NCBI GenBank assembly: GCA_025363435.1
Contig: JANYDY010000090.1
Coordinates: 24,030-88,029, forward strand
Direction of reading: 5' to 3'
DNA length: 64,000 nt
Source of the DNA: Betaproteobacteria bacterium
GTDB lineage: Bacteria > Pseudomonadota > Gammaproteobacteria > Burkholderiales > SG8-41
Shown here: positions 41,218 through 56,935 of the stretch, in pieces
How the letters are laid out: the number at the start of each line of letters is the position of its first letter
How positions within the stretch are numbered: position 1 is the stretch's first letter
Made by a program: the position numbers and the translations under genes
The notes under the pieces: generated by a model
Told to the model about the DNA's origin: nothing
What the model saw: the letters and a program-made list of their open reading frames with translations, nothing else
The model's database searches: none

Positions 41218-41697
41218 ATGCAACGTTCTTCCGGCTTTACCTTGATAGAACTGATGATCACTTGTGCGATCGTGGCGATTCTTGTCGCCGTCGCACTGCC
41301 TTCCTACCAGCAACACATGATCCGCGCGGTGCGCTCCGCCGGACAGCAGTTTTTGCTCGATCTCGCGCAGCGCCAGGAACAGTACTTCATCGACGTGCGC
41401 TGGTACGCTGCGGGCATCGCCACCACATCGACTGCGACCAAGATCACGATGTCGACGCCTGACACCGTTGCTGCAAAATATCAGGCGCCGGCATTTACGG
41501 TGCCAGTGCAGGCTGCCGGTGTAGTGCCGACGTTTACCATATGCCTTGCGCCGATCGCCGGCGGCACAGTCAGCACGGACGGCAGACTGTGCACCAACAA
41601 TGCCGGACAGCGCTGGCGCGAAGTCGACAGCAACAGCGCCTACGACAGCGCCAAAGATTGCCTCTGGGAACGCAACACGTGTACGCCGACTCCGTGA
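41218..41697 (+). CDS. pilE: Type IV pilin-like protein (PilE-type)
   Basis: 159 aa. Prepilin leader MQRSSG|FTLIELMITCAIVAILVAVALPSYQ. Confidence 0.85.
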   Translation: MQRSSGFTLIELMITCAIVAILVAVALPSYQQHMIRAVRSAGQQFLLDLAQRQEQYFIDVRWYAAGIATTSTATKITMSTPDTVAAKYQAPAFTVPVQAAGVVPTFTICLAPIAGGTVSTDGRLCTNNAGQRWREVDSNSAYDSAKDCLWERNTCTPTP

Positions 41698-42293
41698 CGA
41701 CGGCAACATGGCGGCGCGCTGCGGCGCGCGGCTTCACGCTCATCGAACTGATGATCGTGCTGGCGATCGTTGCCACACTGATCGCCATCGGGTTGCCGAA
41801 CATGGCCGATTTTGTCGCCGAACAACGCGTGCGCAGCGTGACCTCCGATATTGCTTCGCAAATTGCCTATGCACGCGCCAAATCAGTCGAACTGGGCCGC
41901 CGCGTTTACATACAGCGGCTCGGCGCCGACTGGAACAGCGGCTGGCGCATCTTTGCCGACCTCAACAACAATCTAACCTACGACGCCGGCGAAGAACTCC
42001 AGCAGTTCAACGGCTTTGGTACCGGTACCGGCAGCGCAACCGGCCGGCTGTATGTGTGCAGCACGGTCGCCGATTTCGCCACCAATGTGATTTTCCGCCC
42101 CGACGGGCGCGTCGTCCGCTCAGGCACCGCAACCACCGCAGCCGACGGCATTTATGTCGTCGACCCGATGGGCGACACTGATCCCTGCAATAACAAAACC
42201 CGCGCCGTGCTGTTCGATCTTTCCGGTCGCGTCAATTCCCGCATCATCACCAGCGGCTCGGCGAGTTGCAAAGGGGTGACGCCACCATGCTGA
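41694..42293 (+). CDS. fimT: Type IV pilus minor pilin FimT/GspH family
   Basis: The in-frame GTG at 41694 (GTGA overlap with the pilE stop) gives VTTATWRRAAARG|FTLIELMIVLAIVATLIAIGLPNM. GspH-type body (RSVTSDIASQIAYARAKSVELGRRVYI). Confidence 0.8.
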   Translation: MTTATWRRAAARGFTLIELMIVLAIVATLIAIGLPNMADFVAEQRVRSVTSDIASQIAYARAKSVELGRRVYIQRLGADWNSGWRIFADLNNNLTYDAGEELQQFNGFGTGTGSATGRLYVCSTVADFATNVIFRPDGRVVRSGTATTAADGIYVVDPMGDTDPCNNKTRAVLFDLSGRVNSRIITSGSASCKGVTPPC

Positions 42294-42964
42294 AACGCCG
42301 CGGCTTTACCATGATCGAGGTGCTCGTCACGCTGGTCATCCTGATGTTCGGGCTGCTGGGTATTGCCGGTCTGATGGCGCGGGGCCAGCGCGCGGCATTC
42401 GAAGCCTTTCAGCGCCAGCAGGCGCTCTCACTCGCCGGCGATATGGCCGAACGCATACTCGGCAACCGTCAGCAGGCGGGCAACTATGCCGCAGCGGCGC
42501 CGCTGGTTACGCCGGTCGGCAATAACTACGGCCTTTTTTATGCCGACCTGCTGAAAAACAACATCACCAATTGCGCCACCGCCGTGTGCACCAGCCTCGA
42601 ACTGCAGCGCTACGACGTTGCGATGTGGGAAGGCCAGTTGCTCGGTTACAGCGAAAACCTCGCCGTCGGCGGCAATCGGGTCGGCGGCATTTTGAATGCC
42701 AACGGTTGCATCGTGCAACTCGCCTCGACAGTGGCGAGCTGCCCGGCTGCACCGGCACCCGTCGGCAATGTGTTTACGCGCACACTGCGCATCAGCGTTG
42801 CCTGGCAAGGCAGCGAAGATACCGGGAGCCCCAGCGTTGTTGCCAACATGACCTGCGGCACCGGCCTCTACCGGAGCCGCAATAACCTTGGCGTCTACGT
42901 TGTATCCGAGGCGAGTCGCCGCCTGGTCGCCACCGACGTTAACGTTCTGGAAAACTGCCCATGA
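42287..42964 (+). CDS. pilV: Type IV pilus minor pilin PilV
   Basis: The ATG at 42287 gives MLKRRG|FTMIEVLVTLVILMFGLLGIAGL, a PilV-type N-terminus. Confidence 0.85.
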   Translation: MLKRRGFTMIEVLVTLVILMFGLLGIAGLMARGQRAAFEAFQRQQALSLAGDMAERILGNRQQAGNYAAAAPLVTPVGNNYGLFYADLLKNNITNCATAVCTSLELQRYDVAMWEGQLLGYSENLAVGGNRVGGILNANGCIVQLASTVASCPAAPAPVGNVFTRTLRISVAWQGSEDTGSPSVVANMTCGTGLYRSRNNLGVYVVSEASRRLVATDVNVLENCP

Positions 42965-44103
42965 TGCGCGCATCCATGACTGCGATGCGACAGGCCGGCC
43001 TGTCGCTGATTGAAATGATGATCGGCCTGGCGATCGGGTTGTTCCTGACGCTCGGGCTGTTCACGCTGATCGCCAATTCATCCAATGCGTTCAAGATTCA
43101 GGATGATTTTGCGCGCATGCAGGAAAACGCAACCGCTGCCATGCGTTATATCGGCGCCTCGGTGCGACAGGCCGGGTTCTACGGCTACGTGCAGGACGCC
43201 ACCTCGCTCAACCTGTCCTACGGCGCTGTCAGCACCGCCACCGACTGCGGCTCAGCGACGAATCTGCCGTTGACGAATTGGGCGTTCGAAGTCAGACAAC
43301 CGATTTTCGGCCTGGTGGGGCTGACGCAGGCGGACGTGAATATCGTATTGCCGTGCATCCTCGCCAGCAACTACTATTCCGCACCCGCTGCCGGCCAGCA
43401 GATACTGGTGACGCGCGGCTCGAACGGCTATCGAATTCCCGATCCAAACGGCGACGGCAATCTTACCGATGGCGTTGCCGCAGAGCGTAACGGTGCAACA
43501 ACGATTTACGTGCAGTCAGACCCCGGTGAAGGTCTGCTTTTCGCGGGCGCAAATTACGCCGCTCTCAGAGCCGCCGGCCGCACGCGCACCCTGCCGGGCG
43601 CCATCGTGCGCGATGCAGACATTTTCGAGTACGCCGCGCATGTCTATTACATCCGGCCGTGCAGCCGCTTCGCCAGCGGCACTGCCTGCACGGCGGCGGC
43701 CGACGACGGCAAACCGATTCCCACACTGGTCAGACAGGAACTCGTCGCCAGCGTGATGACCGAAGTCGCCCTCGCCGAAGGCATCGAACGCATGAGCCTG
43801 CTCTACGGCGTAGACAATGCGCCGGCCGGTTCACCCGACGGCGTCGCAGATACTTTTACTGCAACACCCGCCACCGCCGACTGGGCCAACATCGTGGCGG
43901 TGCGCGTCGCCCTGCTGGTGCGTTCGAGCACGCCGACCGGGCAATATGACGATTCAGCCAAGACCTATGATCTCAATGGCGACAACGTCACCGACTATCG
44001 CTGCACGCTTGACACGATTACACCTGCGGCGTGCAGCTACAAACGCAAGGTTTTCTCGCAACTGTTCCAGTTGCGCAATGTCGCCCAACGCCGAGGCCTG
44101 TGA
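42961..44103 (+). CDS. pilW: Type IV pilus minor pilin PilW
   Basis: 380 aa. MRQAG|LSLIEMMIGLAIGLFLTLGLFTLI; ATGA overlap with pilV. Confidence 0.85.
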   Translation: MMRASMTAMRQAGLSLIEMMIGLAIGLFLTLGLFTLIANSSNAFKIQDDFARMQENATAAMRYIGASVRQAGFYGYVQDATSLNLSYGAVSTATDCGSATNLPLTNWAFEVRQPIFGLVGLTQADVNIVLPCILASNYYSAPAAGQQILVTRGSNGYRIPDPNGDGNLTDGVAAERNGATTIYVQSDPGEGLLFAGANYAALRAAGRTRTLPGAIVRDADIFEYAAHVYYIRPCSRFASGTACTAAADDGKPIPTLVRQELVASVMTEVALAEGIERMSLLYGVDNAPAGSPDGVADTFTATPATADWANIVAVRVALLVRSSTPTGQYDDSAKTYDLNGDNVTDYRCTLDTITPAACSYKRKVFSQLFQLRNVAQRRGL

Positions 44104-44597
44104 TGCCCAACCAACATTCCGTGCAACGCCAGCGCGGCGCCGTGCTGATCGTCAGCCTGATCATGCTTTCGGTGATGACGCTGTTTGTTATTTCCATGCT
44201 CAGAACGTCGATACTCGAATTGAAAATCGGCGGCTCAAGCCACGTCGCGGCACTCAATTTTGCCAATGCCGAATATGCAATCAACAAATGGATCAACGAT
44301 AACAACGGCCGTCTCGCACCGAATTTCCTCGGTTTGACGCCGCTGTCCGCCGGCTGCAGCAACTCGACGTCCGGCGCCGGCCAGTGCACCGACCCGCCAA
44401 CCGTGTTCGGTGGCACCGTCGCGCTGACGCCGACGCAGATTCACTGTGGTCCGTGGGCGAATTTCGGCAGCATGATGGGCGCGGCGCAATTGACCGCCGC
44501 ACGCTTCGACCTGCGCGCGCTGGCCACCGGTACGCTCGGCGGCAGCACGCTGGTGCATCAGGGCGTGCAATCGCTCGCACCGCCCGGCTCCTGTTAA
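44103..44597 (+). CDS. pilX: Type IV pilus minor pilin PilX
   Basis: The ATG at 44103 (TGATG overlap with pilW) gives MPNQHSVQRQRGAVLIVSLIMLSVMTLFVISML, the PilX_N pattern. Confidence 0.8.
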   Translation: MPNQHSVQRQRGAVLIVSLIMLSVMTLFVISMLRTSILELKIGGSSHVAALNFANAEYAINKWINDNNGRLAPNFLGLTPLSAGCSNSTSGAGQCTDPPTVFGGTVALTPTQIHCGPWANFGSMMGAAQLTAARFDLRALATGTLGGSTLVHQGVQSLAPPGSC

Positions 44598-44667
44598 TTC
44601 CAGAATTTATTTTGCAGCCATCCCGAATTTTTCGAATTTGTCGTAGTCCAGCCAAACGAGGTCCGCC

Positions 44668-47600
44668 GTGAATAAACGAAATTTTTTCAGCAAAGCCATT
44701 ACCTGGTTGTTGATCACAGCACTGGTTAATCCCGCCGCGATGGCGCCGGCGTTTGCGCGCGACACCGACATTTTCATGGTCACCAACACCGGTTCGACGG
44801 TGGCGGAGCCCAATATCATGATCGTGCTCGACACTTCGGACTCGATGAACCTGTTTGAAGACTGGCGCGAATATCCCGGCGCCTACGACTCGCACGTCGA
44901 GTATCTGTGGAACGACCTCACAGTCATCGGCAACAGCACGCAGCCTAACTACGTTTCCGAAAACAGTTCGTATATTTCGTCCGGCGTCGGCCCGGTCGTC
45001 ACCTCGATTACGCGCGTCGGCAATCTTGCAACGGTGCAATTCGCCGCCAATCACAACTACCAAATTCTGCCGACGCCCTGGACGGTCGCTGTCTACAACG
45101 CGACAGATCCGCTCTACAACGGCAGCTTTCCGATCAACAGCATGCCAACGTCGACGCGCATCACTTATGTGATGACCGGCACGCCGGCGGCCAATGCCGT
45201 CGCCACCGGCGGCACCCTGCTCTACGCGTCGGCACGTAGCCCGAGCCCGTCCAGCACCCTGGGTTTCTGGGGCGGTGACACGCCCGAGACGCGTCTCGCC
45301 TTGTGGAATTCCGCAAAAACCTATGCCAACGGCACCGAAACCATTGGTGTCGGCGACCCCGGCGTACGCAATGTCTGGCGCAACTACAACGACGCTTCAT
45401 GGATGTACTGGACGACCGCCAGCATTTCATCGATCCGCCTGCGCTCGCCGAGCTTGAACCGTTTCCGCGGCCACATTCAAACCATCGGCGGTACGCGCTC
45501 CGGCGTCACCTTCACGGCAACAACCGACTACCGCGTCTACAACAAATGCAACGATTCCGGCAATGCGCCGGTTGCCGACGTTGCGTCCAATACCAGTGCC
45601 ACCGGCATTTCGAGCCGCATCGACCCGGTTGACGGCGTCACGCCGTACGGGCTCACCCCTTCAACAATTTTTGCGCCGTCGAGCGCACCGCGCAACAGCG
45701 GCCGCTATCGCGGTCAGGAATGGATACGCTGGGAAAGATTCCTCAACCTGCGCGCCGGCCGCTTCACGAACAACGACTCTGACTGGAACTCGGCGGGGTT
45801 CACTTTCAACAACAACAACGTCGGCGTCGCGCCGACATACCCCATCGGCGCCGGCCCGTACACCATCGCCGGAGGTTCGGGCGTTGGTAACGTCGGCCAG
45901 AATATATCTATGCGCGCCAACTATGCGATCAATGCGGTCAATGCCTCGACGCTGCGCGACAGCTGGCCGAATACACCGGGCTTCAACAGCACGACCAATA
46001 TCGGCTGGCAGGGCCAGCCGATCCGCACGCGCATCGACAAATCAACTGCGAGCTCGACGCAAAGCGGCGACTCCTACGCCGGCTGGACCACGCCGAAAGC
46101 CGACCTTGGCGGCTTCCAATTCGCCAGCCTCATCACCGGCGCACCGTACAGCAACAGCTTCGTCGCCAGCGGCGGTTCGACCATAGGTACGGCCAGTGCT
46201 GCATTGGCGTGGGGCGTACTGGCAGAAGCGCTCAATATTTACGGCGTCACAGGCACAACCGGCGCGTTCAACGCGGCGCCGGCTTACCCTGTCGCAGGCC
46301 ACGTCCTCTACAAAGCCTGGTACGGCAATCGCGACAATCCGCCTGGCAGCGGCTTTTCTTTCACCACCGGCACGCCCGCCTACTACGACCACGGTGCCAC
46401 TATCGGTACCGTATTCAACGCAACGACCATCGACCTAACCGCTGCCGCCAGTAATGGTCTCAGCAGTTTTACCGTCGGCAACATCGTCAATGTTACGGAT
46501 AACGTGACCAATCTGGTCGAAACCATTGCAACCGTGACGACCTTCGGCGGACAGCCGCGCATCACCGTAACCGGCCCGTCGCTACTGACGCTGGGGGCGA
46601 CGGTAAAAATTGCCCCCAATCTCAAGCTGACGACCAGCAGCACGGTGGTCACGCAAACCGTGTGTACACGTACTTGCACGCTCGACGCCGACGGCGTTGC
46701 CGGCGCTCCAATCACGCCGGCGAGTCCGACGCAAAAAGATCCGCTGACCTCGAACAGCACCAACGGCAACCTCTATTACGCAAAAGCCGGTTCAACCTGC
46801 GTCGCCTCGGACGTTGCCGGCCTCGGCGCGACCGGCGGCAACAATTGCACCACCGGCGCCGGCATCCCGGCCGCCTGCAGTGCGCCGGTCGCCAGCGGCT
46901 CCTATGTGACAGCAACATACGGCAGTTGCGCGTGGAGCGGCCGTCAAAGCCTTTATGTCGAAGGCTACGGCACCTATTATTACGGCGGCACCTGCGGTGC
47001 GGCATCGACCTGCACGGGCCCGGGCGGCGCCAACGCCGCTGCCTGCCCGGCGGGGCGTATACTGACACCGCAATTCTTTGGCGGCGTCAACTATCGACTC
47101 AGCAATCATTGCCAGGTCAGCGGCCTGACCAACCTCACCATTAACGGCACGGCAATGGCGGGCTCGTACCTCGGCGGCAACGGCACCCAGGGTTGCAGTA
47201 ATGCCAATAACCTGACGGCAGCCTGCCCGACACGGCCGGGCGCCGCCAATCCGGCCGGCTGCTACTACGTCAATGCCGGCTCGGCGACCGCTGCCTGCAA
47301 CCAACCTTCACCGACCACGGTCTCCACCGGCGGCACGACCTCGAACGACTTTGCAGTGTTCAACATGGCCGCCAACGACACGATCCTCTATCACGATTGC
47401 ATCGCCGACAACGGCACCACCGGCAACCCCACCAGCGGCTATGCCAAGAATAACGCCGACGTCGCTTTCGGCACATCGTGGGCTGCCACGTACAACGCCA
47501 CCGCAGCCGCCACCACCGCGCCGTACTCAACCGCCGGTTCGGCGATCGCCGGCGGCAATATGGATGTCTATTCGGTCAATTACCTGAACTGGCAGTTCGG

Positions 47601-50600
47601 CCCGAAAGGTCCGGCCAGTGCGCCAATCGGGCGCAAAACGCGATTGCAAATCGCCAAAGATGCCTTGAGTGGCATCGTCGCCACCACCAACGGCGTGCGC
47701 TTCGGCCTGATGGTATTCAACCGCACGGCCTTATGCACCAACGCCACCGGCTCTATCGCGCCGGGCACCAACCTGTTTACCTCGAGCAATCCCGGCTTTA
47801 CCGCCGGGCAAGCGATACAGGTGCTCGGCGCCGGCGCCAGCGGCGCAACGCTGACCACTACCATCAGTTCATTCGCGGCCAATGTGCTCGACCCGACGCT
47901 GACCGATTTCACACTCGGCGCCAATGCCTCATCCGCCGCCACCACCGGCAGCATTGCGACCGGCTCCAACGTCGTTACGGTTGCCAACGTGACCGGTTTT
48001 GCGGTGGGTCAGCGCATAAAAATCAACAACGCCGATCCGAGCAGCCTGCCGGTGACGACCGATCTGTTTGCGTTCATCAACTCGATCAATCCATTCAGCA
48101 AACAGTTGACACTGAGCGACGTGGCGACGGCGACGGTTGCCGCCGGCACGCCGGTATCGATCAGTTCCTACATCACCACCATGGAAAGCAACCCCTGCGG
48201 CGGCGCCATCGTCAGCGACGGTGCGAACGTGGCGCGCGTGATCAAGCGCATGGGCTCGAGCTCGGTCGATCTGCCGGATTACAACAATCGCGCCACACTG
48301 ATTTCCGCAATCAATGCGGTAGTGGCTGCCGCGCGCACGCCGCTGACTGAATCGATCTACGAGGCTTACCGTTATTTCAGCGGCCGCACACCGAAATGGG
48401 GCACCTCGGCGGCAAATACCAGTTCAGGCAATCCCGCCTCGTTCGGGCGCGACCCCACGGCGATCTGTACTTCGACCGGCCCGGGTACCGGCTGTACTGC
48501 GCTCGGCGCCTATGCTTCGCCGATGCTGAACAACCCGAATACCGCCAATCCGGCCGGTTGCCAGAAAAACTATGTCGTGCTGATTACCGACGGCGGCCCC
48601 GAGGACGATTTCAGCGCCAACGGCGACATACGCAATTTGAGCTGGGCGGGCCCGCTCGGCACCGTCGCAGCGCGCACCGGACTGGATTCGACACAGACCG
48701 ACAGCACGACCGATCAGTTCGAAACCACACCGGTCAGCGGCCCCGCACCGCATCTGCCGTACGGGCCGACCGACCTTGCCGGCACGCTGTTCGACGGCGG
48801 CTATATCTGGCTCGACGAATTGACCTATTTCATGACCAACGCCGACGTCAGCCCGGGGGCGCGCAATTTCACCTCGGATGGCAGCGCCGATTCGATTCCC
48901 GGCCGACAATCGGTCAATACTTACACGATCGGATTTGCCGGCGCCAATTCGCCCGTTTTGCAGAATGCTGCGTTACGCGGCAACGGCCAGTACTACACGG
49001 CTGACAACAGTGCAGCCTTGTCGGCGGCGATCATCGCCGCACTGGCGGCGATTACAAACTGGAACCCGACTGTGGCGGCGCCGACGGTGCCGATCTCGGC
49101 ACTGAACCGTTCGGAAAACGCAACCGACGTTTATCTGTCGTTCTTCCAGCCCGATCCGACGACTGAATGGCTCGGCACAGTGAAGAAATTCCAGTTGAGC
49201 CGCTACCCCGACAACGGCGACGCAACGATCTGCGGCTCCGGCATCGGTTTGTGTCTGGTCGGCCAGAGCCGGCTGACCAAATCGGCGCCGAACGAGAGCG
49301 GCGTCTACAACATCGAGACCGTGACCGTCGATACCATTACCGGCATTACGCAATCGGAAGTCGACGTCAATGCATCGAGCTTCTGGGCGCCGGCGACAGT
49401 GCTTGACGGCAGCCGGCCGGCAGCCGGCGGCACGGGCTATCAGTTGATCAACAATACGGGATCGCCCACTTTGTTGACGCCGGAAACCCGCAAGGTCTAT
49501 ACCTTTCTGACGAATTCTGTTGCGGCTAATCGTGGCAACTCCGGCGCCACTGCTGATCTGACCAATGCCGTCAACAAGGTACACATGACGAACACGAACA
49601 TCACCAAGTGCCGTCTTGGTGACGCCGCGGACTGCGTGTCGGCAGGCAGCGGCACCATGGCCGACGATGTTCAGGAAACCTATATCAACTGGATCCGCGG
49701 CGGCGACGTTGCGGCAACCGGCACATCGTGTACTGACGGCTTGACGGCCACCACGTGCACGACCTGGCGCCTCTGGCCGCATGCCGACGTGCAGCACTCC
49801 AAACCGGCGATTCTGACTTACACCGGGGCGCCGAGTGTCCTGCAATACATGTTCTACCTGCAGAACAACGGTCTCGTCACGGCAGTCGATACCGCAACCG
49901 GTCTTGAAAAATGGAATTTCATGGTCGAGGAGGCGCTGCCGCAAATCAACGCGATGCGCACGGATGCCTCGGGCGGTGAAATTTACGTGGCTGACGGCAC
50001 GCCGACGATCTATCACCAGGACGCCAATAACGACGGCTATGTCAACGGTACTGACCGGGTATACATGTTCTTCGGTCTGCGCCGCGGCGGCCGCGTTTAT
50101 TACGCGCTCGATATCACAGACCCGCTTACACCGCTGTTCAAGTGGAAAATCGACGCCAGTCAGGCGCCGGGAACCACGGCCAAGATCTGCGTTGGCAGCG
50201 GCACCTGCTCACCGGTCACCGGGTTTAATGAGTTGGGGCAGACCTGGTCGACACCGTTTGTCGGCAAAATACTCGCCAATGCAAACCCGGTACTGATTTT
50301 CGGCGGCGGCTATGACGCAGGCAATCCGGTACCGGTATTTCCGGCGGTCGCCGGTGATGACGCACAGCCGCCGGGCACGCGCTCGATGGGCCGCGCGCTA
50401 TACGTCATCGATGCCTTCGATACGACAATCATCAAATCGTGGGGGGTAGGCCAGCCCGGCGCCTTTATCGGCGGCGGCGGCGGGTCAATGATTTACGCCA
50501 TCCCGTCCGACGTGACAGCGCTCAATACCGACCTTGATTCACAGGGCTATATCGACCGTATCTACGTCGGCGATATGCGCGCGAACGTATGGCGTTTCGA

Positions 50601-51369
50601 CGTCGGCGATGCAACACCGTCCAATTGGAACGGCAAGCTTTTTGCCACACTGTCGAGCGATATTTCCTCGGGGGAAAGACGCAAAATCATGTTCCCGCCG
50701 GCAATCGTGAAACAGAATCTGCCGTACCGTTTTGACGCAGTCTACGTCGGCACAGGCGACAAGGAACATCCGTTGTGCCTGACCGCGAACCAGGTCACGC
50801 CAACGGTCATGACCAACACCTGTGCGCAGTTTGCTCCGCAGGACAAGATGTTCATGGTGATCGATAAGGACTACGGAACAATCATGAGCGGAGGCGCGCC
50901 CAACGTGAACGCCATTACAGTTGCCGATCTAACGCAGCGTCTGACCGGCGACCTGGTCACCAATACATCGGCGTCGGTCCTGAACACGTCTCTTGGTTGG
51001 TACCGCAATCTCGATAACGGCGAGAAAGTAATTAACGCAGCGACCGTATTCGAGCAGCGCTTGCGCTTCGGCACCTATGCACCGCTGGGACAAAGCGGCG
51101 GCGCCTGCGTGCCGGCGGGCGAAGGCCGCCTGAACGAGATCGACGCGCTGACCGGTGATCTGGTGCCGATTAACGGTGCGGTAACTCAGGCGTCGGATCG
51201 TTATTACTCGACGTTTATCACGCACGGTTATATTTCAACCGGCCAGTTGATCGTGCAGGGCAAGAACATCTACCACATCGTGGTTTCCGACTCGCGCTTG
51301 CAGTCTGTGCTGGTCGGCAGCCTCGGCTCGGCAACCAAGATTTACTGGTACATGGAACCCGAGCAATAA
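44668..51369 (+). CDS. pilY1: Giant PilY1-like type IV pilus tip adhesin (2,233 aa): split vWA domain + C-terminal PilY1 domain
   Basis: GTG start with GAGG 7 nt upstream; signal peptide. MIDAS DTSDS (res 55-59). vWA/PilY1 landmarks: YSVNYLNWQF (968-977), RLQIAKDAL, VRFGLMVFN (1010-1018), TPLTESIYEAYRYFSG (1224-1239), NYVVLITDGG (1301-1310). C-terminal domain with Ca-site-like DANNDGYVNGTD and DLDSQGYIDRIYVGD...VWRFDV. Confidence 0.85.
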   Translation: MNKRNFFSKAITWLLITALVNPAAMAPAFARDTDIFMVTNTGSTVAEPNIMIVLDTSDSMNLFEDWREYPGAYDSHVEYLWNDLTVIGNSTQPNYVSENSSYISSGVGPVVTSITRVGNLATVQFAANHNYQILPTPWTVAVYNATDPLYNGSFPINSMPTSTRITYVMTGTPAANAVATGGTLLYASARSPSPSSTLGFWGGDTPETRLALWNSAKTYANGTETIGVGDPGVRNVWRNYNDASWMYWTTASISSIRLRSPSLNRFRGHIQTIGGTRSGVTFTATTDYRVYNKCNDSGNAPVADVASNTSATGISSRIDPVDGVTPYGLTPSTIFAPSSAPRNSGRYRGQEWIRWERFLNLRAGRFTNNDSDWNSAGFTFNNNNVGVAPTYPIGAGPYTIAGGSGVGNVGQNISMRANYAINAVNASTLRDSWPNTPGFNSTTNIGWQGQPIRTRIDKSTASSTQSGDSYAGWTTPKADLGGFQFASLITGAPYSNSFVASGGSTIGTASAALAWGVLAEALNIYGVTGTTGAFNAAPAYPVAGHVLYKAWYGNRDNPPGSGFSFTTGTPAYYDHGATIGTVFNATTIDLTAAASNGLSSFTVGNIVNVTDNVTNLVETIATVTTFGGQPRITVTGPSLLTLGATVKIAPNLKLTTSSTVVTQTVCTRTCTLDADGVAGAPITPASPTQKDPLTSNSTNGNLYYAKAGSTCVASDVAGLGATGGNNCTTGAGIPAACSAPVASGSYVTATYGSCAWSGRQSLYVEGYGTYYYGGTCGAASTCTGPGGANAAACPAGRILTPQFFGGVNYRLSNHCQVSGLTNLTINGTAMAGSYLGGNGTQGCSNANNLTAACPTRPGAANPAGCYYVNAGSATAACNQPSPTTVSTGGTTSNDFAVFNMAANDTILYHDCIADNGTTGNPTSGYAKNNADVAFGTSWAATYNATAAATTAPYSTAGSAIAGGNMDVYSVNYLNWQFGPKGPASAPIGRKTRLQIAKDALSGIVATTNGVRFGLMVFNRTALCTNATGSIAPGTNLFTSSNPGFTAGQAIQVLGAGASGATLTTTISSFAANVLDPTLTDFTLGANASSAATTGSIATGSNVVTVANVTGFAVGQRIKINNADPSSLPVTTDLFAFINSINPFSKQLTLSDVATATVAAGTPVSISSYITTMESNPCGGAIVSDGANVARVIKRMGSSSVDLPDYNNRATLISAINAVVAAARTPLTESIYEAYRYFSGRTPKWGTSAANTSSGNPASFGRDPTAICTSTGPGTGCTALGAYASPMLNNPNTANPAGCQKNYVVLITDGGPEDDFSANGDIRNLSWAGPLGTVAARTGLDSTQTDSTTDQFETTPVSGPAPHLPYGPTDLAGTLFDGGYIWLDELTYFMTNADVSPGARNFTSDGSADSIPGRQSVNTYTIGFAGANSPVLQNAALRGNGQYYTADNSAALSAAIIAALAAITNWNPTVAAPTVPISALNRSENATDVYLSFFQPDPTTEWLGTVKKFQLSRYPDNGDATICGSGIGLCLVGQSRLTKSAPNESGVYNIETVTVDTITGITQSEVDVNASSFWAPATVLDGSRPAAGGTGYQLINNTGSPTLLTPETRKVYTFLTNSVAANRGNSGATADLTNAVNKVHMTNTNITKCRLGDAADCVSAGSGTMADDVQETYINWIRGGDVAATGTSCTDGLTATTCTTWRLWPHADVQHSKPAILTYTGAPSVLQYMFYLQNNGLVTAVDTATGLEKWNFMVEEALPQINAMRTDASGGEIYVADGTPTIYHQDANNDGYVNGTDRVYMFFGLRRGGRVYYALDITDPLTPLFKWKIDASQAPGTTAKICVGSGTCSPVTGFNELGQTWSTPFVGKILANANPVLIFGGGYDAGNPVPVFPAVAGDDAQPPGTRSMGRALYVIDAFDTTIIKSWGVGQPGAFIGGGGGSMIYAIPSDVTALNTDLDSQGYIDRIYVGDMRANVWRFDVGDATPSNWNGKLFATLSSDISSGERRKIMFPPAIVKQNLPYRFDAVYVGTGDKEHPLCLTANQVTPTVMTNTCAQFAPQDKMFMVIDKDYGTIMSGGAPNVNAITVADLTQRLTGDLVTNTSASVLNTSLGWYRNLDNGEKVINAATVFEQRLRFGTYAPLGQSGGACVPAGEGRLNEIDALTGDLVPINGAVTQASDRYYSTFITHGYISTGQLIVQGKNIYHIVVSDSRLQSVLVGSLGSATKIYWYMEPEQ

Positions 51370-51468: not shown

Positions 51469-52395
51469 TCAGGCCGAGGCGAGATTCTTCGGCAGCGGAA
51501 AGGTGACGCGTTCGGTGATCCCGGAAAGCTCTGATACTTCCGTCGCACCGAGTTCACGCAGTCGCGCGACCACTTCCTGCACCAGCACCTCCGGTGCGGA
51601 AGCGCCGGCGGTAATGCCGACGCAGCGGCTGCCGGCGACCCATTGCGGGTTCAATTCACGGGCGTTATCCACCATATAGGCAGCGACACCCTGGTTCGCC
51701 GCGACTTCGCGCAGGCGGTTCGAATTGGAACTGTTCGGCGAGCCGACAACTATCACGACGTCGCACTGTTGCGCCAGTTCCTTGATCGCGTCCTGGCGGT
51801 TTTGCGTGGCGTAGCAAATGTCGTCCTTGCGCGGACCGGCAATTTTCGGAAACCGCGCGCGCAGCGCGGCGATGATCTGGCTCGCGTCATCAACCGACAA
51901 AGTAGTCTGGGTCACGAAGGCGATATTGCTTTCGTCAGTTACCTTCAAGGCAGCGACATCGGCGGGTTTTTCGACTAGATACATGCCGCCTTGCGACTGC
52001 CCCATCGTACCTTCAACTTCGGGGTGGCCGTGATGGCCGATCATGACGATTTCGCGGCCCTGCTCGCGCAGCTTGGCAACTTCGACATGCACCTTGGTCA
52101 CCAGCGGACAGGTCGCATCGAAGACGCGCAGGCCGCGTGCTTCGGCGTGTAGACGCACCGCCTGCGAAACGCCGTGCGCGCTGAAAATCACTGTGCTGCC
52201 GGCCGGCACCTCGTCGAGATCTTCGACGAAAACCGCACCTTTGGCACGCAGATCCTCGACGACGAATTTGTTGTGCACGACTTCGTGGCGAACGTAGATC
52301 GGCGCGCCGTGTATCGACAGCGCGCGTTCGACGATTTCAATCGCACGATCAACACCGGCACAAAAGCCGCGGGGTTTGGCGAGAAGTACTTGCAT
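51469..52395 (-). CDS. ispH: 4-hydroxy-3-methylbut-2-enyl diphosphate reductase IspH (LytB)
   Basis: 308 aa. [23 protein letters not shown]...FSAHGVS...[10 protein letters not shown]. Confidence 0.97.
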
Positions 52396-52438: not shown

Positions 52439-52900
52439 TCAGGATTTTCGCTGCGGCTTCAGGCTGTCCCACACCACCAGCGCGGCACCGCAGGTAATCG
52501 CCGAATCAGCAACGTTGAACGCCGGCCAGTGCCAGCCGGTGGCGTGAAAATCGAGAAAATCGACCACCGCACCGACTAAAATGCGATCGATCAGATTGCC
52601 CAGCGCGCCCCCCAGTATCAGGCTGAGGGCAAAGCAAAAAACCGTTTCGCGCGCATGCCGGCGCAGCAAAAACACGATCCAGACCGAGGCGATCAACGCA
52701 ATGCCGATGAAAAACCCGCGCTGCCAGCCCGCCGCAGCGGCGAGAAAACTGAAGGCCGCACCGGCGTTATGAACCAGCACGATATTAAAAAAAGACGTTA
52801 TCTCAACGCTGCGGCCACCGCCCAACCATTGCGTTATCGCATATTTCGACGCCTGGTCGAGAACGATGAGAAGCGCCGCAATGCCGAGCCAGCGGCTCAT
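52439..52900 (-). CDS. lspA: Lipoprotein signal peptidase II LspA
   Basis: 153 aa, 4 TM. VHNAGAAFSFL and GGALGNLIDR...VVDFLDF motifs. Confidence 0.95.
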   Translation of the reverse strand: MSRWLGIAALLIVLDQASKYAITQWLGGGRSVEITSFFNIVLVHNAGAAFSFLAAAAGWQRGFFIGIALIASVWIVFLLRRHARETVFCFALSLILGGALGNLIDRILVGAVVDFLDFHATGWHWPAFNVADSAITCGAALVVWDSLKPQRKS

Positions 52901-52910
52901 GTGCGGTCAC

Positions 52911-55862
52911 TCATGCAAAGCGGCGCGGCTCGCCCGCTCCGTAAAGGTTCGCCACGCAGCGCGCGCAAATCTCCGCATGCGCCGCATCGGCGCCAACATC
53001 GGCGCGGTAATGCCAGCAGCGTTCGCACTTGCTGTACGTCGTTGCGCTGACTTTCACGCTGACGCCCTCAAGCGCCGTGGCTATCGCACCGGCGTCACTG
53101 CCTTTATTGACAGTGGTCCGCGAGGTAATAAAGGCAAAACGCAAATCGTCGGCAAATGAACTCAACAGCGCATGATTTTCGCCATCAGCGTAGAGATCGA
53201 CCTCGCCGGCAAGCGAAGAACCGATCTTGCCGGCAATGCGCAGGTCTTCGAGCAGCTTCAAGACGTCGGAGCGCAAAGCACGCAACTTCTGCCAGCGCCC
53301 GCGCAAGACATCGGCATCGCGCGGCTGCGGAAACTGATACCAGGTCTGTTCGAAAACGCTGCTGTCAGTGCCATTGAGCGTTTCCCAGACTTCGCTGGCA
53401 GTGAACGACAACACCGGCGCCATCAGGCGCACCAGTGTCTGCGTCATGTGATAAAGCGCGTTTTGCGCCGAACGCCGCGCGCGGCTGTTGGCGCCGGCGG
53501 TATAGAGGCGGTCTTTCAGCACATCGAGATAAAACCCGCCGAGGTCTTCGGAACAGAAGGACTGCAGTTTCTGCGCGACGTTGTGAAATTCGTAACGTCC
53601 GTAATGGCCGGGCGATTGCGGTTCCTTGACGCCAAGTTCGGCAGGCGCCAGCGCGGCCTGCAAATCCTGCGTCATGACCAGCGCATAGCGGTCTATTTCG
53701 AGCCAGTCGTCGACCGGCAGCGCATGCGCTTTGGGGTCGAAGTCGGCGATGTTGGCCAGCAGAAAACGCAGCGTGTTGCGGATGCGCCGGTACGATTCGA
53801 CGACGCGCTTCAAAATTTCATCCGAAATCGACAACTCGCCCGAATAATCGGTCTGCCCGACCCACAGACGCAGGATATCGGCGCCGAGCGTATCGAGCAC
53901 TTTCTGCGGCGCGATCACGTTGCCCACCGATTTCGACATCTTGCGGCCTTTGCCGTCGACGACGAAACCGTGCGTCAGCAAGCCGCCATAGGGCGCGACA
54001 CCGTTGATCATGCACGACACCAGCAGCGACGAATGAAACCAGCCGCGGTGCTGGTCCGAGCCTTCAAGATACAAATCGGCCGGAAACTGCAACACATCCT
54101 TGTGCGAGCCGCGCAACACCGTTTCGTGCGTCGAGCCCGAATCGAACCAAACGTCCAGCGTGTCGCGGATTTTTTCGTACTGGCCGGCATCGGCGCCGAG
54201 CAGCTCGCCTATATCGAGCTGCTGCCATGCTTCGATACCCGATTGTTCGACTTTTTGTGCAATCGTTTCCAGCAACTCAAGCGTGCGCGGATGCAGTTGG
54301 CGCGTCTCTTTGTGGATGAACAGCGGCATCGGCACGCCCCACTGGCGCTGGCGCGACAGGGTCCAGTCCGGACGGTTGGCGATCATGCCGTGCAGACGCG
54401 CCTTGCCCCAGTCCGGATAAAACTTCGTCGCTTCGACGGCGCGCAACGCCGTCGCGCGCAACGTCTCCGCCGGTTTGACGCCGCCGTAACCGGGCACCGC
54501 CTCCATGCCGGCGAACCATTGCGTGGTGGCGCGGTAAATGATCGGCGACTTGTGGCGCCAGCAATGCATATAGCTGTGCAGCTCCGGCTTCTCGTGAAAC
54601 AGCGCACCGTTTTCACGCAACTTCTCGACGATCTGCGGATTAGCTTTCCAGATGTTGAGCCCGCCGAACAGAGGTAGCGCTTCGCTGTAACGGCCGCTGC
54701 CCTGCACCGGCGTCAGGATTGCGTCGTCCTTCATGCCGTTGGCGCGGCAGGAGTTGAAGTCTTCGATGCCGTACGACGGCGCGCAGTGCACGATGCCGGT
54801 ACCAGTTTCAAGCGTGACGTATTCGGCCAGATAGACAGGCGAGGTGCGTTCGTAGAAAGGATGACGGAACTTGATTAATTCCAAATCCTTTCCGAGGCAG
54901 GTTGCCAGAATCTTGCTTCGCGTTATCCCATAGCCCGTCAAAAGAGGTGAGACATAATCGTCGCCATATGGACTCTGAACCAAAGGTCCTTTTTTTCCCA
55001 TTTGAATCGGAGGGCGATCATATTCCGGGGGAAATGCGAATTTTGACGCGACAATCAATAGTCCCCTGTCGGTTTCAACTAGGGCATATTCGAAATCTGG
55101 ATGTACATTAAGTGCTTGGTTGGCCGGTATCGTCCACGGCGTAGTGGTCCAGATCACGATCCAGCCCTTGGCGTCTGGCAGATTCGTCAGTCCGAACGCC
55201 TTGGCAATTTTGTCCGGCTCCGCGAACGGAAAACCGACATCGACCGCGGTGTCCTTGCGATCGATGTATTCGACCTCGGCCTCGGCCAGCGCCGAGCCGC
55301 AATCGAAGCACCAGTTCACGGGCTTCAGGCCGCGATAGACGTAGCCCTTCCCGATCAGCTTGCCGAGCGCGCGGATTTCGTCGGCTTCATTCTTGAAATC
55401 CATCGTCAGGTACGGGCGATCCCATTCGCCGAGCACGCCGAGACGGATGAAATCTTTTTTCTGGCGCTCGATCTGCACCGCCGCATAGGCGCGCGACTTC
55501 TGCTGCACTTCGCCCACGCTCAAGGCCTTGCCGAATTCTTTTTCGATCTGGATTTCGATCGGCATGCCGTGGCAATCCCAGCCCGGCACGTACGGCGCAT
55601 CGAAACCCGACAGCGATTTCGATTTGACAATGATGTCCTTGAGGATTTTGTTGACTGCATGGCCGATGTGAATATCGCCATTCGCGTACGGTGGCCCGTC
55701 GTGCAGAATGAATTTCGGCCGCCCCTGCGACGCCGCACGGATCTGTTCATAGAGCTTGCGCTCCTGCCACGCTTTCAACATCAACGGCTCGCGTTTAGCG
55801 AGATCGCCTCGCATCGGAAACGGCGTGTCCGGCAGGTTCAGGGTTTTTTTGTAATCAGCCAT
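52911..55862 (-). CDS. ileS: Isoleucyl-tRNA synthetase IleS
   Basis: The ATG at 55862 gives [13 protein letters not shown]; 983 aa. HIGH ([11 protein letters not shown]), KMSKS, C-terminal zinc-ribbon cysteines (CERCWHY...CARC). The track ORF starts at 55919. Confidence 0.97.
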
Positions 55863-56808
55863 TGCGGGTCTTGCGGTTGGTTGCACGCGCGGCAAAAAAG
55901 CCTTTCGCGTTTTCGACATCGCGCGCGATCTGGCGCTTTAATGTTTCGATGTCGGCGTATTTTTCCTCGTCGCGGAATTTATGCAAAAACTCGATCTTCA
56001 AATGTTTACCGTAGATATCGCGATCGAAATCGAACAGATGCACTTCAAGACAAGGCCGCGCGTCACGCGCTACAGTGGGCCGCACACCGAGACTCGCCAC
56101 ACCCGGCAGTATCCTGCCGTCCAGGCCCTGCACTTCAACGGCAAAAATGCCCGCCAGTGGCGGCCGGTTGTGTTTCATCAGCACGTTGGCAGTCGGGCAT
56201 CCGAGCGTGCGGCCGAAACCGTCGCCGTGGACGACGCGCCCGCTGATCGAATAAGCACGGCCCAGAAGGCGTTGCGCACCCGTCATGTCGCCGGCTGCCA
56301 GCGCCTCACGCACCGCAGTGCTCGAAACGCGTATGCCGTCAACCAAAACACTGGTCATCGCATGCACTTCAAAACCACAGCGCGCCTCGGCGGCCTTCAG
56401 CATGACGAAATCGCCGGCGCGGCGCGCGCCGAAACGAAAATCGTCGCCAACCTGTATCCAGCGTGCACCGAGACCGCGCTGCAGCAGGCGCTCGATAAAG
56501 TCTTCCGGTGCGGTTTTCGCAAAATCGAAATTGAAACGGCAGATATGCACGCGCTCGACACCGGCGCGTTCAAGCAATTCAAGTTTTTCGCGCAATGAGG
56601 TCAGGCGTGTCGGCGCTTTGTCCGGCGCAAAAAATTCGCGTGGATGCGGTTCAAACGTCATCACGCAGGACGGCAGCGAGCGCTCGCGCGCCGCCGCGCT
56701 CAAACGCGCCAGCATCGCCTGGTGGCCGAGATGTACACCATCGAAGTTGCCTATGGTCAGGGCAACAGGCATCTCGGCAGCGTCCGGTATGGTGCGTGAG
56801 ATGCGCAT
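55855..56808 (-). CDS. ribF: Bifunctional riboflavin kinase / FAD synthetase RibF
   Basis: The ATG at 56808 gives [22 protein letters not shown] adenylyltransferase motif and a C-terminal riboflavin kinase domain ([11 protein letters not shown]). Confidence 0.95.
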
Positions 56809-56935
56809 ACAAGCCAAGCTAAAAGCTTGAATTGTAGCGTGTTTTAGACGAAGCGGTCTAGGCGCGCGGACTCGTTACTGGCGAAGCCAGCCGTTTGCGG
56901 GCAGCGCGCCACGCCCTCGCTCTCGGCCCGAAGTT

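Follow-up and report, generated by a model that had tools for sequence, protein, structure and literature searches.

A cysteine-rich, family-specific domain in a giant betaproteobacterial PilY1 protein

Why should a protein of the type IV pilus (T4P) tip carry 15 cysteines within 246 of its residues? The question is raised by a pilY1-like gene in a 64,000-nucleotide stretch of DNA (the window) from a Betaproteobacteria bacterium (assembly GCA_025363435.1, contig JANYDY010000090.1, positions 24,030 to 88,029). Its product is an exported PilY1 with a putative split von Willebrand factor type A (vWA) domain and a C-terminal propeller. The original prediction had read the cysteine cluster as a disulfide-knotted extracellular module, EGF-, lectin- or toxin-like, of a kind unusual for the pilus tip protein of a Gram-negative bacterium. 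Our analysis suggests that residues ~643–940 probably form a family-specific, all-beta domain that is held together by seven internal disulfides and a tether to C294, is exposed at the pilus tip and has a mainly structural role. The features concerned, in window coordinates, are:

44668–51369, + strand: pilY1-like gene, an intact open reading frame (ORF) with a GTG start, 2233 residues (ORF list and translation)
44668–44757, + strand: Sec-type signal peptide, residues 1–30, ending AFA and followed by RD (read by eye from the sequence)
46663–47400, + strand: cysteine-rich module, residues 666–911, with 15 Cys (translation); the domain envelope is ~643–940

The signal peptide displays a basic n-region, the hydrophobic core ITWLLITALV and an AxA site, as judged by inspection. 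The mature N-terminus, RDTDI, is kept family-wide.

A conserved domain of giant PilY1 proteins

The protein contains 32 cysteines in total, and up to residue 1177 they stand at positions 294, 666, 670, 711, 727, 737, 754, 776, 782, 793, 815, 843, 853, 865, 877, 911, 1023 and 1177. A script run on the translation reproduced exactly every one of the 15 positions that had been listed within residues 666–911. C294 and C1023 are, as had also been stated, the only cysteines before residue 1177 that fall outside this segment, and the short contexts AACP (791–794 and 851–854), TAAC (874–877), GTCG and TCTG are all present. Cysteine density within the segment is 15 in 246 residues (6.1%), compared with 17 in the 1987 residues of the remainder, and when the residues of the protein were shuffled 20,000 times, one shuffle gave a 246-residue window with at least 15 cysteines. 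The cluster is non-random, and it lies in a background rich in Ala, Gly, Thr, Ser and Asn. Between positions 46500 and 47600 there are no DNA repeats of note, so that recent duplication does not account for the recurring AAC contexts; comparison of four sub-segments using hhalign likewise gave no internal repeats in the module beyond trivial overlap. The recurring C-x9-11-AAC contexts look like convergent loop contexts.

When the full-length sequence was searched against 5.8 billion proteins, 107 relatives of 1.4–2.4 thousand residues were returned, many of them annotated as PilY1 or carrying PF05567. The module (residues 640–940) was detected in 105 of these by local BLAST, phmmer and jackhmmer, with scores of up to 288 bits and E values down to 1e-88 (local BLAST/phmmer), and the densest 250-residue window holds 13–20 cysteines in almost all family members. 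Orphan status of the module was considered and rejected. It had rested on a word-indexed search in which the 301-residue segment matched nothing, not even the identical database protein, and the local matches refute it; we treat the miss as a prefilter artefact on low-complexity composition, since such queries can escape that search entirely.

The distribution of the module outside these relatives was examined with a module profile. Using HMMER against 1.84 billion representative proteins, 39 matches were obtained at E<=1e-3, and on inspection all were giant PilY1 proteins or contig-truncated pieces of them. As the profile matches fall in giant PilY1 proteins, with no match elsewhere, the module is family-specific. 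Judged from these sequences, it is a conserved domain of ~130 giant PilY1 proteins (1.7–2.4 thousand residues) of Rhodocyclaceae and Burkholderiales, including Ca. Accumulibacter phosphatis.

A scan of the GTDB species representatives with an alignment of the N-terminal region of the family located 52 loci, nearly all with betaproteobacterial titles. These include Ca. Accumulibacter phosphatis (NC_013194.1), other Accumulibacter, Ca. Desulfobacillus denitrificans (AP021857.1), Ca. Dechloromonas phosphorivorans, Sterolibacterium, and metagenome-assembled genomes (MAGs) of Rhodocyclaceae and Burkholderiales. The closest locus among the species representatives is only 57% identical, and the module is encoded in 48 of the 52. 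A single module sequence used as query against the same representatives gave no tblastn-confirmed match. A few MAG loci are oddly labelled, as Chitinophaga pinensis (L030), Streptomycetaceae (L047), Bifidobacteriaceae (L016) and Bordetella parapertussis (L009/L033), and one family member (P0042) as Luteitalea sp.; these labels are likely to be binning or labelling errors and not the true distribution.

The cysteines are conserved among orthologues, as a disulfide-bonded module would require. In 53 single-copy modules with a median identity of 37% to the query, the cysteine columns are 96% conserved compared with 43% for the other columns, and all 15 module cysteines are retained in nine full-length orthologues at 61–67% identity. 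Two further motifs stand out:

46927–46995, + strand: WSGR motif, C754-A-W-S-G-R-x-S-x-Y-V-E-G-x-G-T-Y-Y-Y-G-G-T-C776, the most conserved non-cysteine motif of the module
47386–47409, + strand: L907-x-H909-D910-C911-x-x-D914 motif at the C-terminal edge of the module (conservation, alignment)

Within the first motif, W756, G758, R759, E765, G766, G768, G773 and G774 are each conserved in at least 91% of the 53 modules, and R856-x-G858 is also near-invariant. In the second, H909 is invariant, with D910 and D914 at least 92% conserved. Some relatives contain extra copies of sub-segments (a second C-x-WSGR, a second YxxGG[ST]C), giving 19, 21, 23 or 31 cysteines; the C754–C776 motif is duplicated in those with 19–21.

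Pairing of the cysteines

The number of cysteines in the module follows a strict parity. A further cysteine lies upstream:

45547–45549, + strand: Cys294, proposed partner of the unpaired module cysteine, present in 107 of 107 homologues

In all 110 complete modules the cysteine count is odd (11, 13, 15, 17, 19, 21, 23 or 31). Likewise, it is odd in all but three of the 48 module-encoding loci from the species representatives, where the even-count spans (8, 10 and 14 Cys) are short ORFs or cover the module in part. From the mature N-terminus to the start of the module the count is again odd in 94 of 94 proteins, being exactly 1 in 60 of them, and from the end of the module to about residue 1200 it is even in 92 of 94. 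Where orthologues carry extra cysteines these come in twos, and whole-protein totals in the nine orthologues are always even, at 32–36.

Presence and absence across the 107-sequence alignment were used as a guide to individual partners. The obvious local pairs 1023/1177, 1648/1656, 1688/1697 and 2037/2052 co-occur perfectly, which makes presence/absence a valid proxy for pairing. Within the module, 670 and 737 are jointly lost in three sequences, 666 and 727 in four, and 782 and 793 in more than 10; two sequences lack all four of 711, 754, 815 and 877 at once. In one relative (P0077) the loop between C853 and C865 has been deleted along with both cysteines.

Given the odd count in the module, the odd count upstream and the pairwise loss and gain of cysteines, the simplest reading of the alignment is that of seven intramodule disulfides together with one bond from the module to C294. 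The parity rule, odd in the module and odd upstream, thus predicts an interdomain tether. C294 had been hinted at in the original prediction as a sixteenth cysteine of the insertion, and parity now backs its pairing with the module. Its most likely partner is C911, which is present in 106 of 107 homologues; this residue is favoured because it is the most conserved cysteine, belongs to the invariant HDC motif and lies on an edge strand whose prediction becomes good only once the entire N-terminal part is included. The most parsimonious bond map would comprise 666–727, 670–737, 782–793, 853–865, 776–843 (by elimination), two bonds within the set 711, 754, 815 and 877, and 911–294. A map of four local C-x9-11-C loops (727–737, 782–793, 843–853 and 865–877) was rejected as less parsimonious, as it needs rewiring to accommodate the co-losses 670+737, 666+727 and 853+865 and the pattern seen in one further relative (P0036).

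A different use for the cysteines would be as metal ligands (Zn, Fe-S or similar), or as free thiols for intermolecular bonds to minor pilins. The CxxxC at residues 666–670 and the conserved H909, D910, D914 and E765 could bind a metal, and the odd module count could in principle leave one thiol free. However, the protein is exported, its cysteines are gained and lost strictly in twos, one loop deletion removes exactly two of them, and the upstream region always carries a matching odd cysteine, so that an intramolecular partner exists. There is also no CxxCH or cluster-type spacing, and intermolecular PilY1 disulfides were not seen in P. aeruginosa (PMC8806160). We regard metal ligands or free thiols as highly improbable, and a metal cluster was rejected on account of the pairwise behaviour of the cysteines and the export of the protein. 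Export, conservation of cysteines above background and their gain and loss in pairs are together characteristic of a disulfide-bonded extracytoplasmic domain, and in combination with the odd count and the predicted fold described below they bear out the prediction of a disulfide-rich, folded extracytoplasmic module.

Predicted fold, placement and role

The structure of the module was predicted with AlphaFold2, both in isolation and as part of residues 32–1230. In the larger model (40-sequence alignment), which has a mean predicted local distance difference test (pLDDT) score of 76 and a predicted template modelling score of 0.66, the module is all-beta. The isolated module (25-sequence alignment) has a mean pLDDT of 71.5 with its core, residues 735–855, at 78–95 and the C754–C776 motif as its highest-scoring region. 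Predicted disorder, which would count against a folded module, was not observed. The edge strand that bears C911 (899–945 region) falls below a pLDDT of 50 in the isolated module compared with 80–88 in the 32–1230 model, which suggests packing of this strand against the remainder of the molecule.

Neither sequence nor fold searches placed the module in a known family. With the module as query, Foldseek gave a best E of 3 (probability 0.01) against the PDB and of 1.2 against BFVD, the module profile had no match to PDB sequences at E<=10, and neither the window segment nor any of 25 family members had a meaningful Pfam match. An EGF domain (~40 residues, six cysteines paired C1–C3, C2–C4 and C5–C6) was recognised neither by Pfam nor by Foldseek, and the module spacings of 4–45 residues over 246 residues are unlike that pattern. 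Lectin folds (C-type, ricin-B, jelly-roll and others) were not recognised in Pfam, in PDB sequences or by Foldseek against the PDB and BFVD. The comparison with knottins, in which three disulfides lie within 30–50 residues and one of them threads the ring formed by the other two, gave no profile or fold match; the bonds proposed above would amount mostly to local loops and a two-rung ladder.

These results bear on the possibility that a borrowed, widespread binding domain (lectin-, EGF- or cystine-knot toxin-like) has been inserted in PilY1. The high cysteine density would be in keeping with such an origin, the aromatic and glycine-rich GTYYYGG could suit glycan binding, and the cystine-knot protein Gremlin-1 is among the Foldseek matches in the PDB, but at E=6.2 and a probability of 0.02. 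Set against this are the lack of any Pfam, PDB-sequence or Foldseek relative, the confinement of all 39 profile matches to giant PilY1 proteins or their fragments, and the scattering of the cysteines across ~250 residues instead of within knots of 30–50. A borrowed domain therefore appears very unlikely, and the EGF-, lectin- or toxin-like character proposed originally finds no support in these searches. With the whole 1199-residue model as query, Foldseek returned weak matches only (E>=1.4e-3), to phage tail and tailspike small barrels, E1 enzymes and EF-Tu; these probably stem from small inserted beta-barrels and not from the cysteine module.

The placement of the module follows from that of MIDAS, the metal-ion-dependent adhesion site of the vWA domain:

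44830–44844, + strand: MIDAS DxSxS motif, D55-T-S-D-S59, following the first vWA strand and present in almost every family member

The block LDTSDSMN, which contains this motif, is conserved family-wide. In the 32–1230 model the first vWA strand (49–54) is followed by ~930 residues that are mostly beta, and then by a helix (992–1006) and a strand (1011–1017). As the vWA elements resume only after ~930 residues, the insertion appears to leave the vWA fold at the MIDAS loop. A split vWA domain would agree with the succession of strands and helices in this model; no fold match was obtained, and the family profile gave a weak match to the VWFA protein 9e5c (E=0.014).

In the account that we favour, that of a family-specific domain held by disulfides, fourteen of the module cysteines would form seven intradomain bonds and the fifteenth, most likely C911 of the HDC motif, would be bonded to the invariant C294 in the conserved N-terminal core. 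The module would lie within the ~930-residue insertion that departs from the vWA domain just past the MIDAS DxSxS loop, which would place it on the outward, ligand-facing side of the tip protein. Since it would emerge from the MIDAS face, it should be exposed at the pilus tip. The Dsb system of the periplasm would form the bonds ahead of assembly and extrusion of the tip complex, and the bonds would probably supply much of the stability of a weakly hydrophobic chain rich in Gly, Thr, Asn and Ala. A likely role would be that of a rugged head domain, resistant to proteases and to force, on a fibre pulling with ~100 pN, which may present a conserved aromatic and glycine-rich surface (WSGR...VEGxGTYYYGG, HDC..D) for adhesion.

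Several points weigh against this account. The bond map draws on few independent loss events, and the sequences are phylogenetically related, so that the counts overstate the number of such events. C727 is lost without C666 in five sequences, which requires a replacement cysteine elsewhere. The C294–C911 link derives from parity and invariance only, and 776, 843, 853 or 865, which are also invariant, could be the partner instead. The pairing is a deduction from sequence comparison. The overall pLDDT of the isolated module is moderate, with the stretch 652–700 poorly predicted, and the adhesive role is putative.

The disulfides, especially the C294–module tether, could act otherwise than as static staples, namely as a force-sensing switch that is broken or isomerised under pilus tension and signals surface contact. 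There is precedent in the A2 domain of von Willebrand factor and in Cys152 of P. aeruginosa PilY1 (PMC8806160, PMC9210963), and a single long-range bond between two invariant cysteines ~617 residues apart is a clamp of the type that hides chain length. On the other hand, most of the proposed bonds are short-range loops (782–793, 853–865) typical of static stabilisation, and the switch is proposed by analogy. We consider such a switch unlikely. A broader proposal combines several of these elements: the module would be an undescribed fold unique to the giant PilY1 proteins of Accumulibacter-type Betaproteobacteria, with the C294–C911 bond as a clamp or force sensor at the apex and the WSGR/GTYYYGG/HDC surface binding the floc or granule matrix. 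This combination appears rather unlikely.

Disulfide-dependent pilins and adhesins are routine in Gram-negative bacteria. FimH-like fimbrial tip adhesins, for example, are oxidised in the periplasm, terminate a fibre that bears tensile load and need their disulfides under force. The present protein would resemble them (FimH is cited in PMC8806160) as an oxidised tip adhesin under load; it differs in that FimH belongs to a chaperone-usher pilus, has a single disulfide, located in a lectin domain whose fold is known, and is not homologous.

Cysteine-rich PilY1 proteins have themselves been published. In P. aeruginosa PilY1, 7 of 11 cysteines lie in the vWA domain and are functionally important (Webster et al., 2022, PMC8806160), whereas myxobacterial PilY1 proteins have 7–41 cysteines and 5–20 predicted disulfides, read as stabilising long extracellular domains (PMC13190605, 2026). 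The cluster is therefore not unusual for a Gram-negative pilus tip protein in the way that had been supposed.

The propeller of PilY1 is placed on the minor-pilin complex with the vWA end at the pilus apex (summarised in PMC8806160), and the vWA cysteines are important in the sensing of force (PMC8806160, PMC9210963). The P. aeruginosa protein is like the present one in being T4P tip-associated, in having most of its cysteines within an N-terminal vWA/MIDAS region (a predicted one in the present protein) and in docking on minor pilins through a C-terminal propeller (PMC8806160; reviewed in PMC9210963), and the control of mechanical behaviour proposed for its cysteines is a further likeness. 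It has, however, seven cysteines in ~320 residues and no separate cysteine-rich domain, whereas here 15 lie in a discrete domain of ~250–300 residues inside the ~930-residue insertion. The two cysteine regions had no similarity to each other that the sequence search detected, the profile having matched giant betaproteobacterial PilY1 proteins only.

Myxobacterial clades 1.5–1.7 (PMC13190605) are similar in comprising extended proteins with 30–41 cysteines and 5–20 predicted disulfides, in which cysteine content tracks clade and length. They belong to Myxococcota, in contrast to the Rhodocyclaceae and Burkholderiales described here, and the module was undetected outside its own family at E<=1e-3. 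It is probably independent of the myxobacterial proteins, a comparison made through the profile search.

Cysteine-rich PilY1 proteins and Dsb-dependent pilus biogenesis were thus already known, and nothing is overturned. What is new is the particular discrete domain, without profile or fold match, confined to giant PilY1 proteins and following a strict odd-cysteine rule. The N-terminal regions of PilY1 decide the adhesion targets and force sensing of T4P, and none is known to have been solved experimentally; the module is a compact, conserved and apparently fold-novel domain that could seed a new domain family. Its hosts, including Ca. Accumulibacter and Dechloromonas, matter for phosphorus removal from wastewater, where pili and aggregation have practical weight.

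The remainder of the protein and its gene neighbourhood

The assignment as PilY1 rests on the minor-pilin operon and on the match of the family profile to the C-terminal domain of P. aeruginosa PilY1. The protein is 100% identical to a database protein (P0001). A profile of 40 relatives matches 3HX6 (3HX6_A) with E=6.5e-19 over profile positions 1274–1686 of 1751, and PF05567 is carried by homologues that are 45–50% identical across the C-terminal half, consistent with homology of the propeller to the PilY1 C-terminal domain. Used alone, the window protein matched neither PF05567 in a Pfam scan nor any PDB sequence; it gave weak matches to T4_PilC_Neiss in NCBIfam (E=5e-5, far below the cut-off) and to VWA_2 in Pfam (E=0.0045, below the cut-off, residues 989–1021). 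The features of this part of the protein are:

47734–48198, + strand: C1023...C1177 pair enclosing a clade-specific insert of the vWA domain (co-occurrence: both in 15 relatives, neither in 92)
49165–51366, + strand: C-terminal PilY1 beta-propeller region, ~residues 1500–2233 (profile match to 3HX6; PF05567 in homologues)

The C1023–C1177 region, where 85% of the family has gaps, is modelled as beta strands, which make up two tandem small beta-barrels (~1030–1100 and ~1096–1149) that are 36% identical (E=3e-4). Homologous small barrels are found elsewhere in relatives, e.g. in the propeller region of P0040 (residues 1690–1745), and look like mobile insert domains. They probably account for the weak Foldseek matches to phage tailspike, Dit, E1 and EF-Tu barrels. 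Beta-rich inserts at residues ~100–170 (44965–45180) and ~575–660 (46390–46650) occur in the closest orthologues only (9–14 proteins); across most of the family these positions are gaps. The length of 2233 residues, compared with ~1800 in relatives, is largely due to such inserts and not to the cysteine module.

In the propeller region the local cysteine pairs 1522/1529, 1648/1656, 1688/1697, 1841/1847 and 2037/2052 co-occur. C1298 (48559–48561) immediately precedes the vWA strand NYVVLITDGG, and C2147 (51106–51108) is part of a conserved AC.P.GxGRL motif close to the C-terminus. Each is retained in at least 105 of 107 relatives and lacks an obvious partner nearby; a long-range bond between the two may connect the vWA domain with the propeller. 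The nearly invariant C-terminal ending YWY.EPE(Q/R) (51340–51366) may be a contact with the minor-pilin complex.

The minor-pilin gene set lies directly 5' of the pilY1-like gene, on the same strand:

41218–44597, + strand: minor-pilin genes upstream of the pilY1-like gene (Pfam N_methyl + ComP_DUS, GspH, Tt1218-like, PilW, PilX_N)
41218–41697, + strand: pilE/ComP-like gene (Pfam N_methyl + ComP_DUS)
ending at 42293, + strand: FimT/GspH-like gene (Pfam GspH)
42266–42964, + strand: PilV-like gene (Pfam; Tt1218-like in the upstream set)
42961–44103, + strand: PilW gene (Pfam PilW)
ending at 44597, + strand: PilX-like gene (Pfam PilX_N)

Downstream, on the opposite strand, are long ORFs at 51469–52395, 52439–52900, 52911–55919 and 55855–56817, which, to judge by their translations, appear to be ispH, lspA, ileS and ribF. 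A minor-pilin/pilY1 cluster adjoining ispH-lspA-ileS-ribF is an arrangement that we take to be that of the fimU-pilVWXY1 neighbourhood of Pseudomonas aeruginosa. No pilY2 or pilE follows pilY1; the PilE/ComP-like gene instead heads the cluster. GC skew is strongly negative, at -0.12 to -0.14, over positions 44000–48000 of the window, where the N-terminal half of pilY1 lies, against about -0.03 elsewhere; the codon composition of this Thr/Ala/Gly/Asn-rich sequence is the probable cause.

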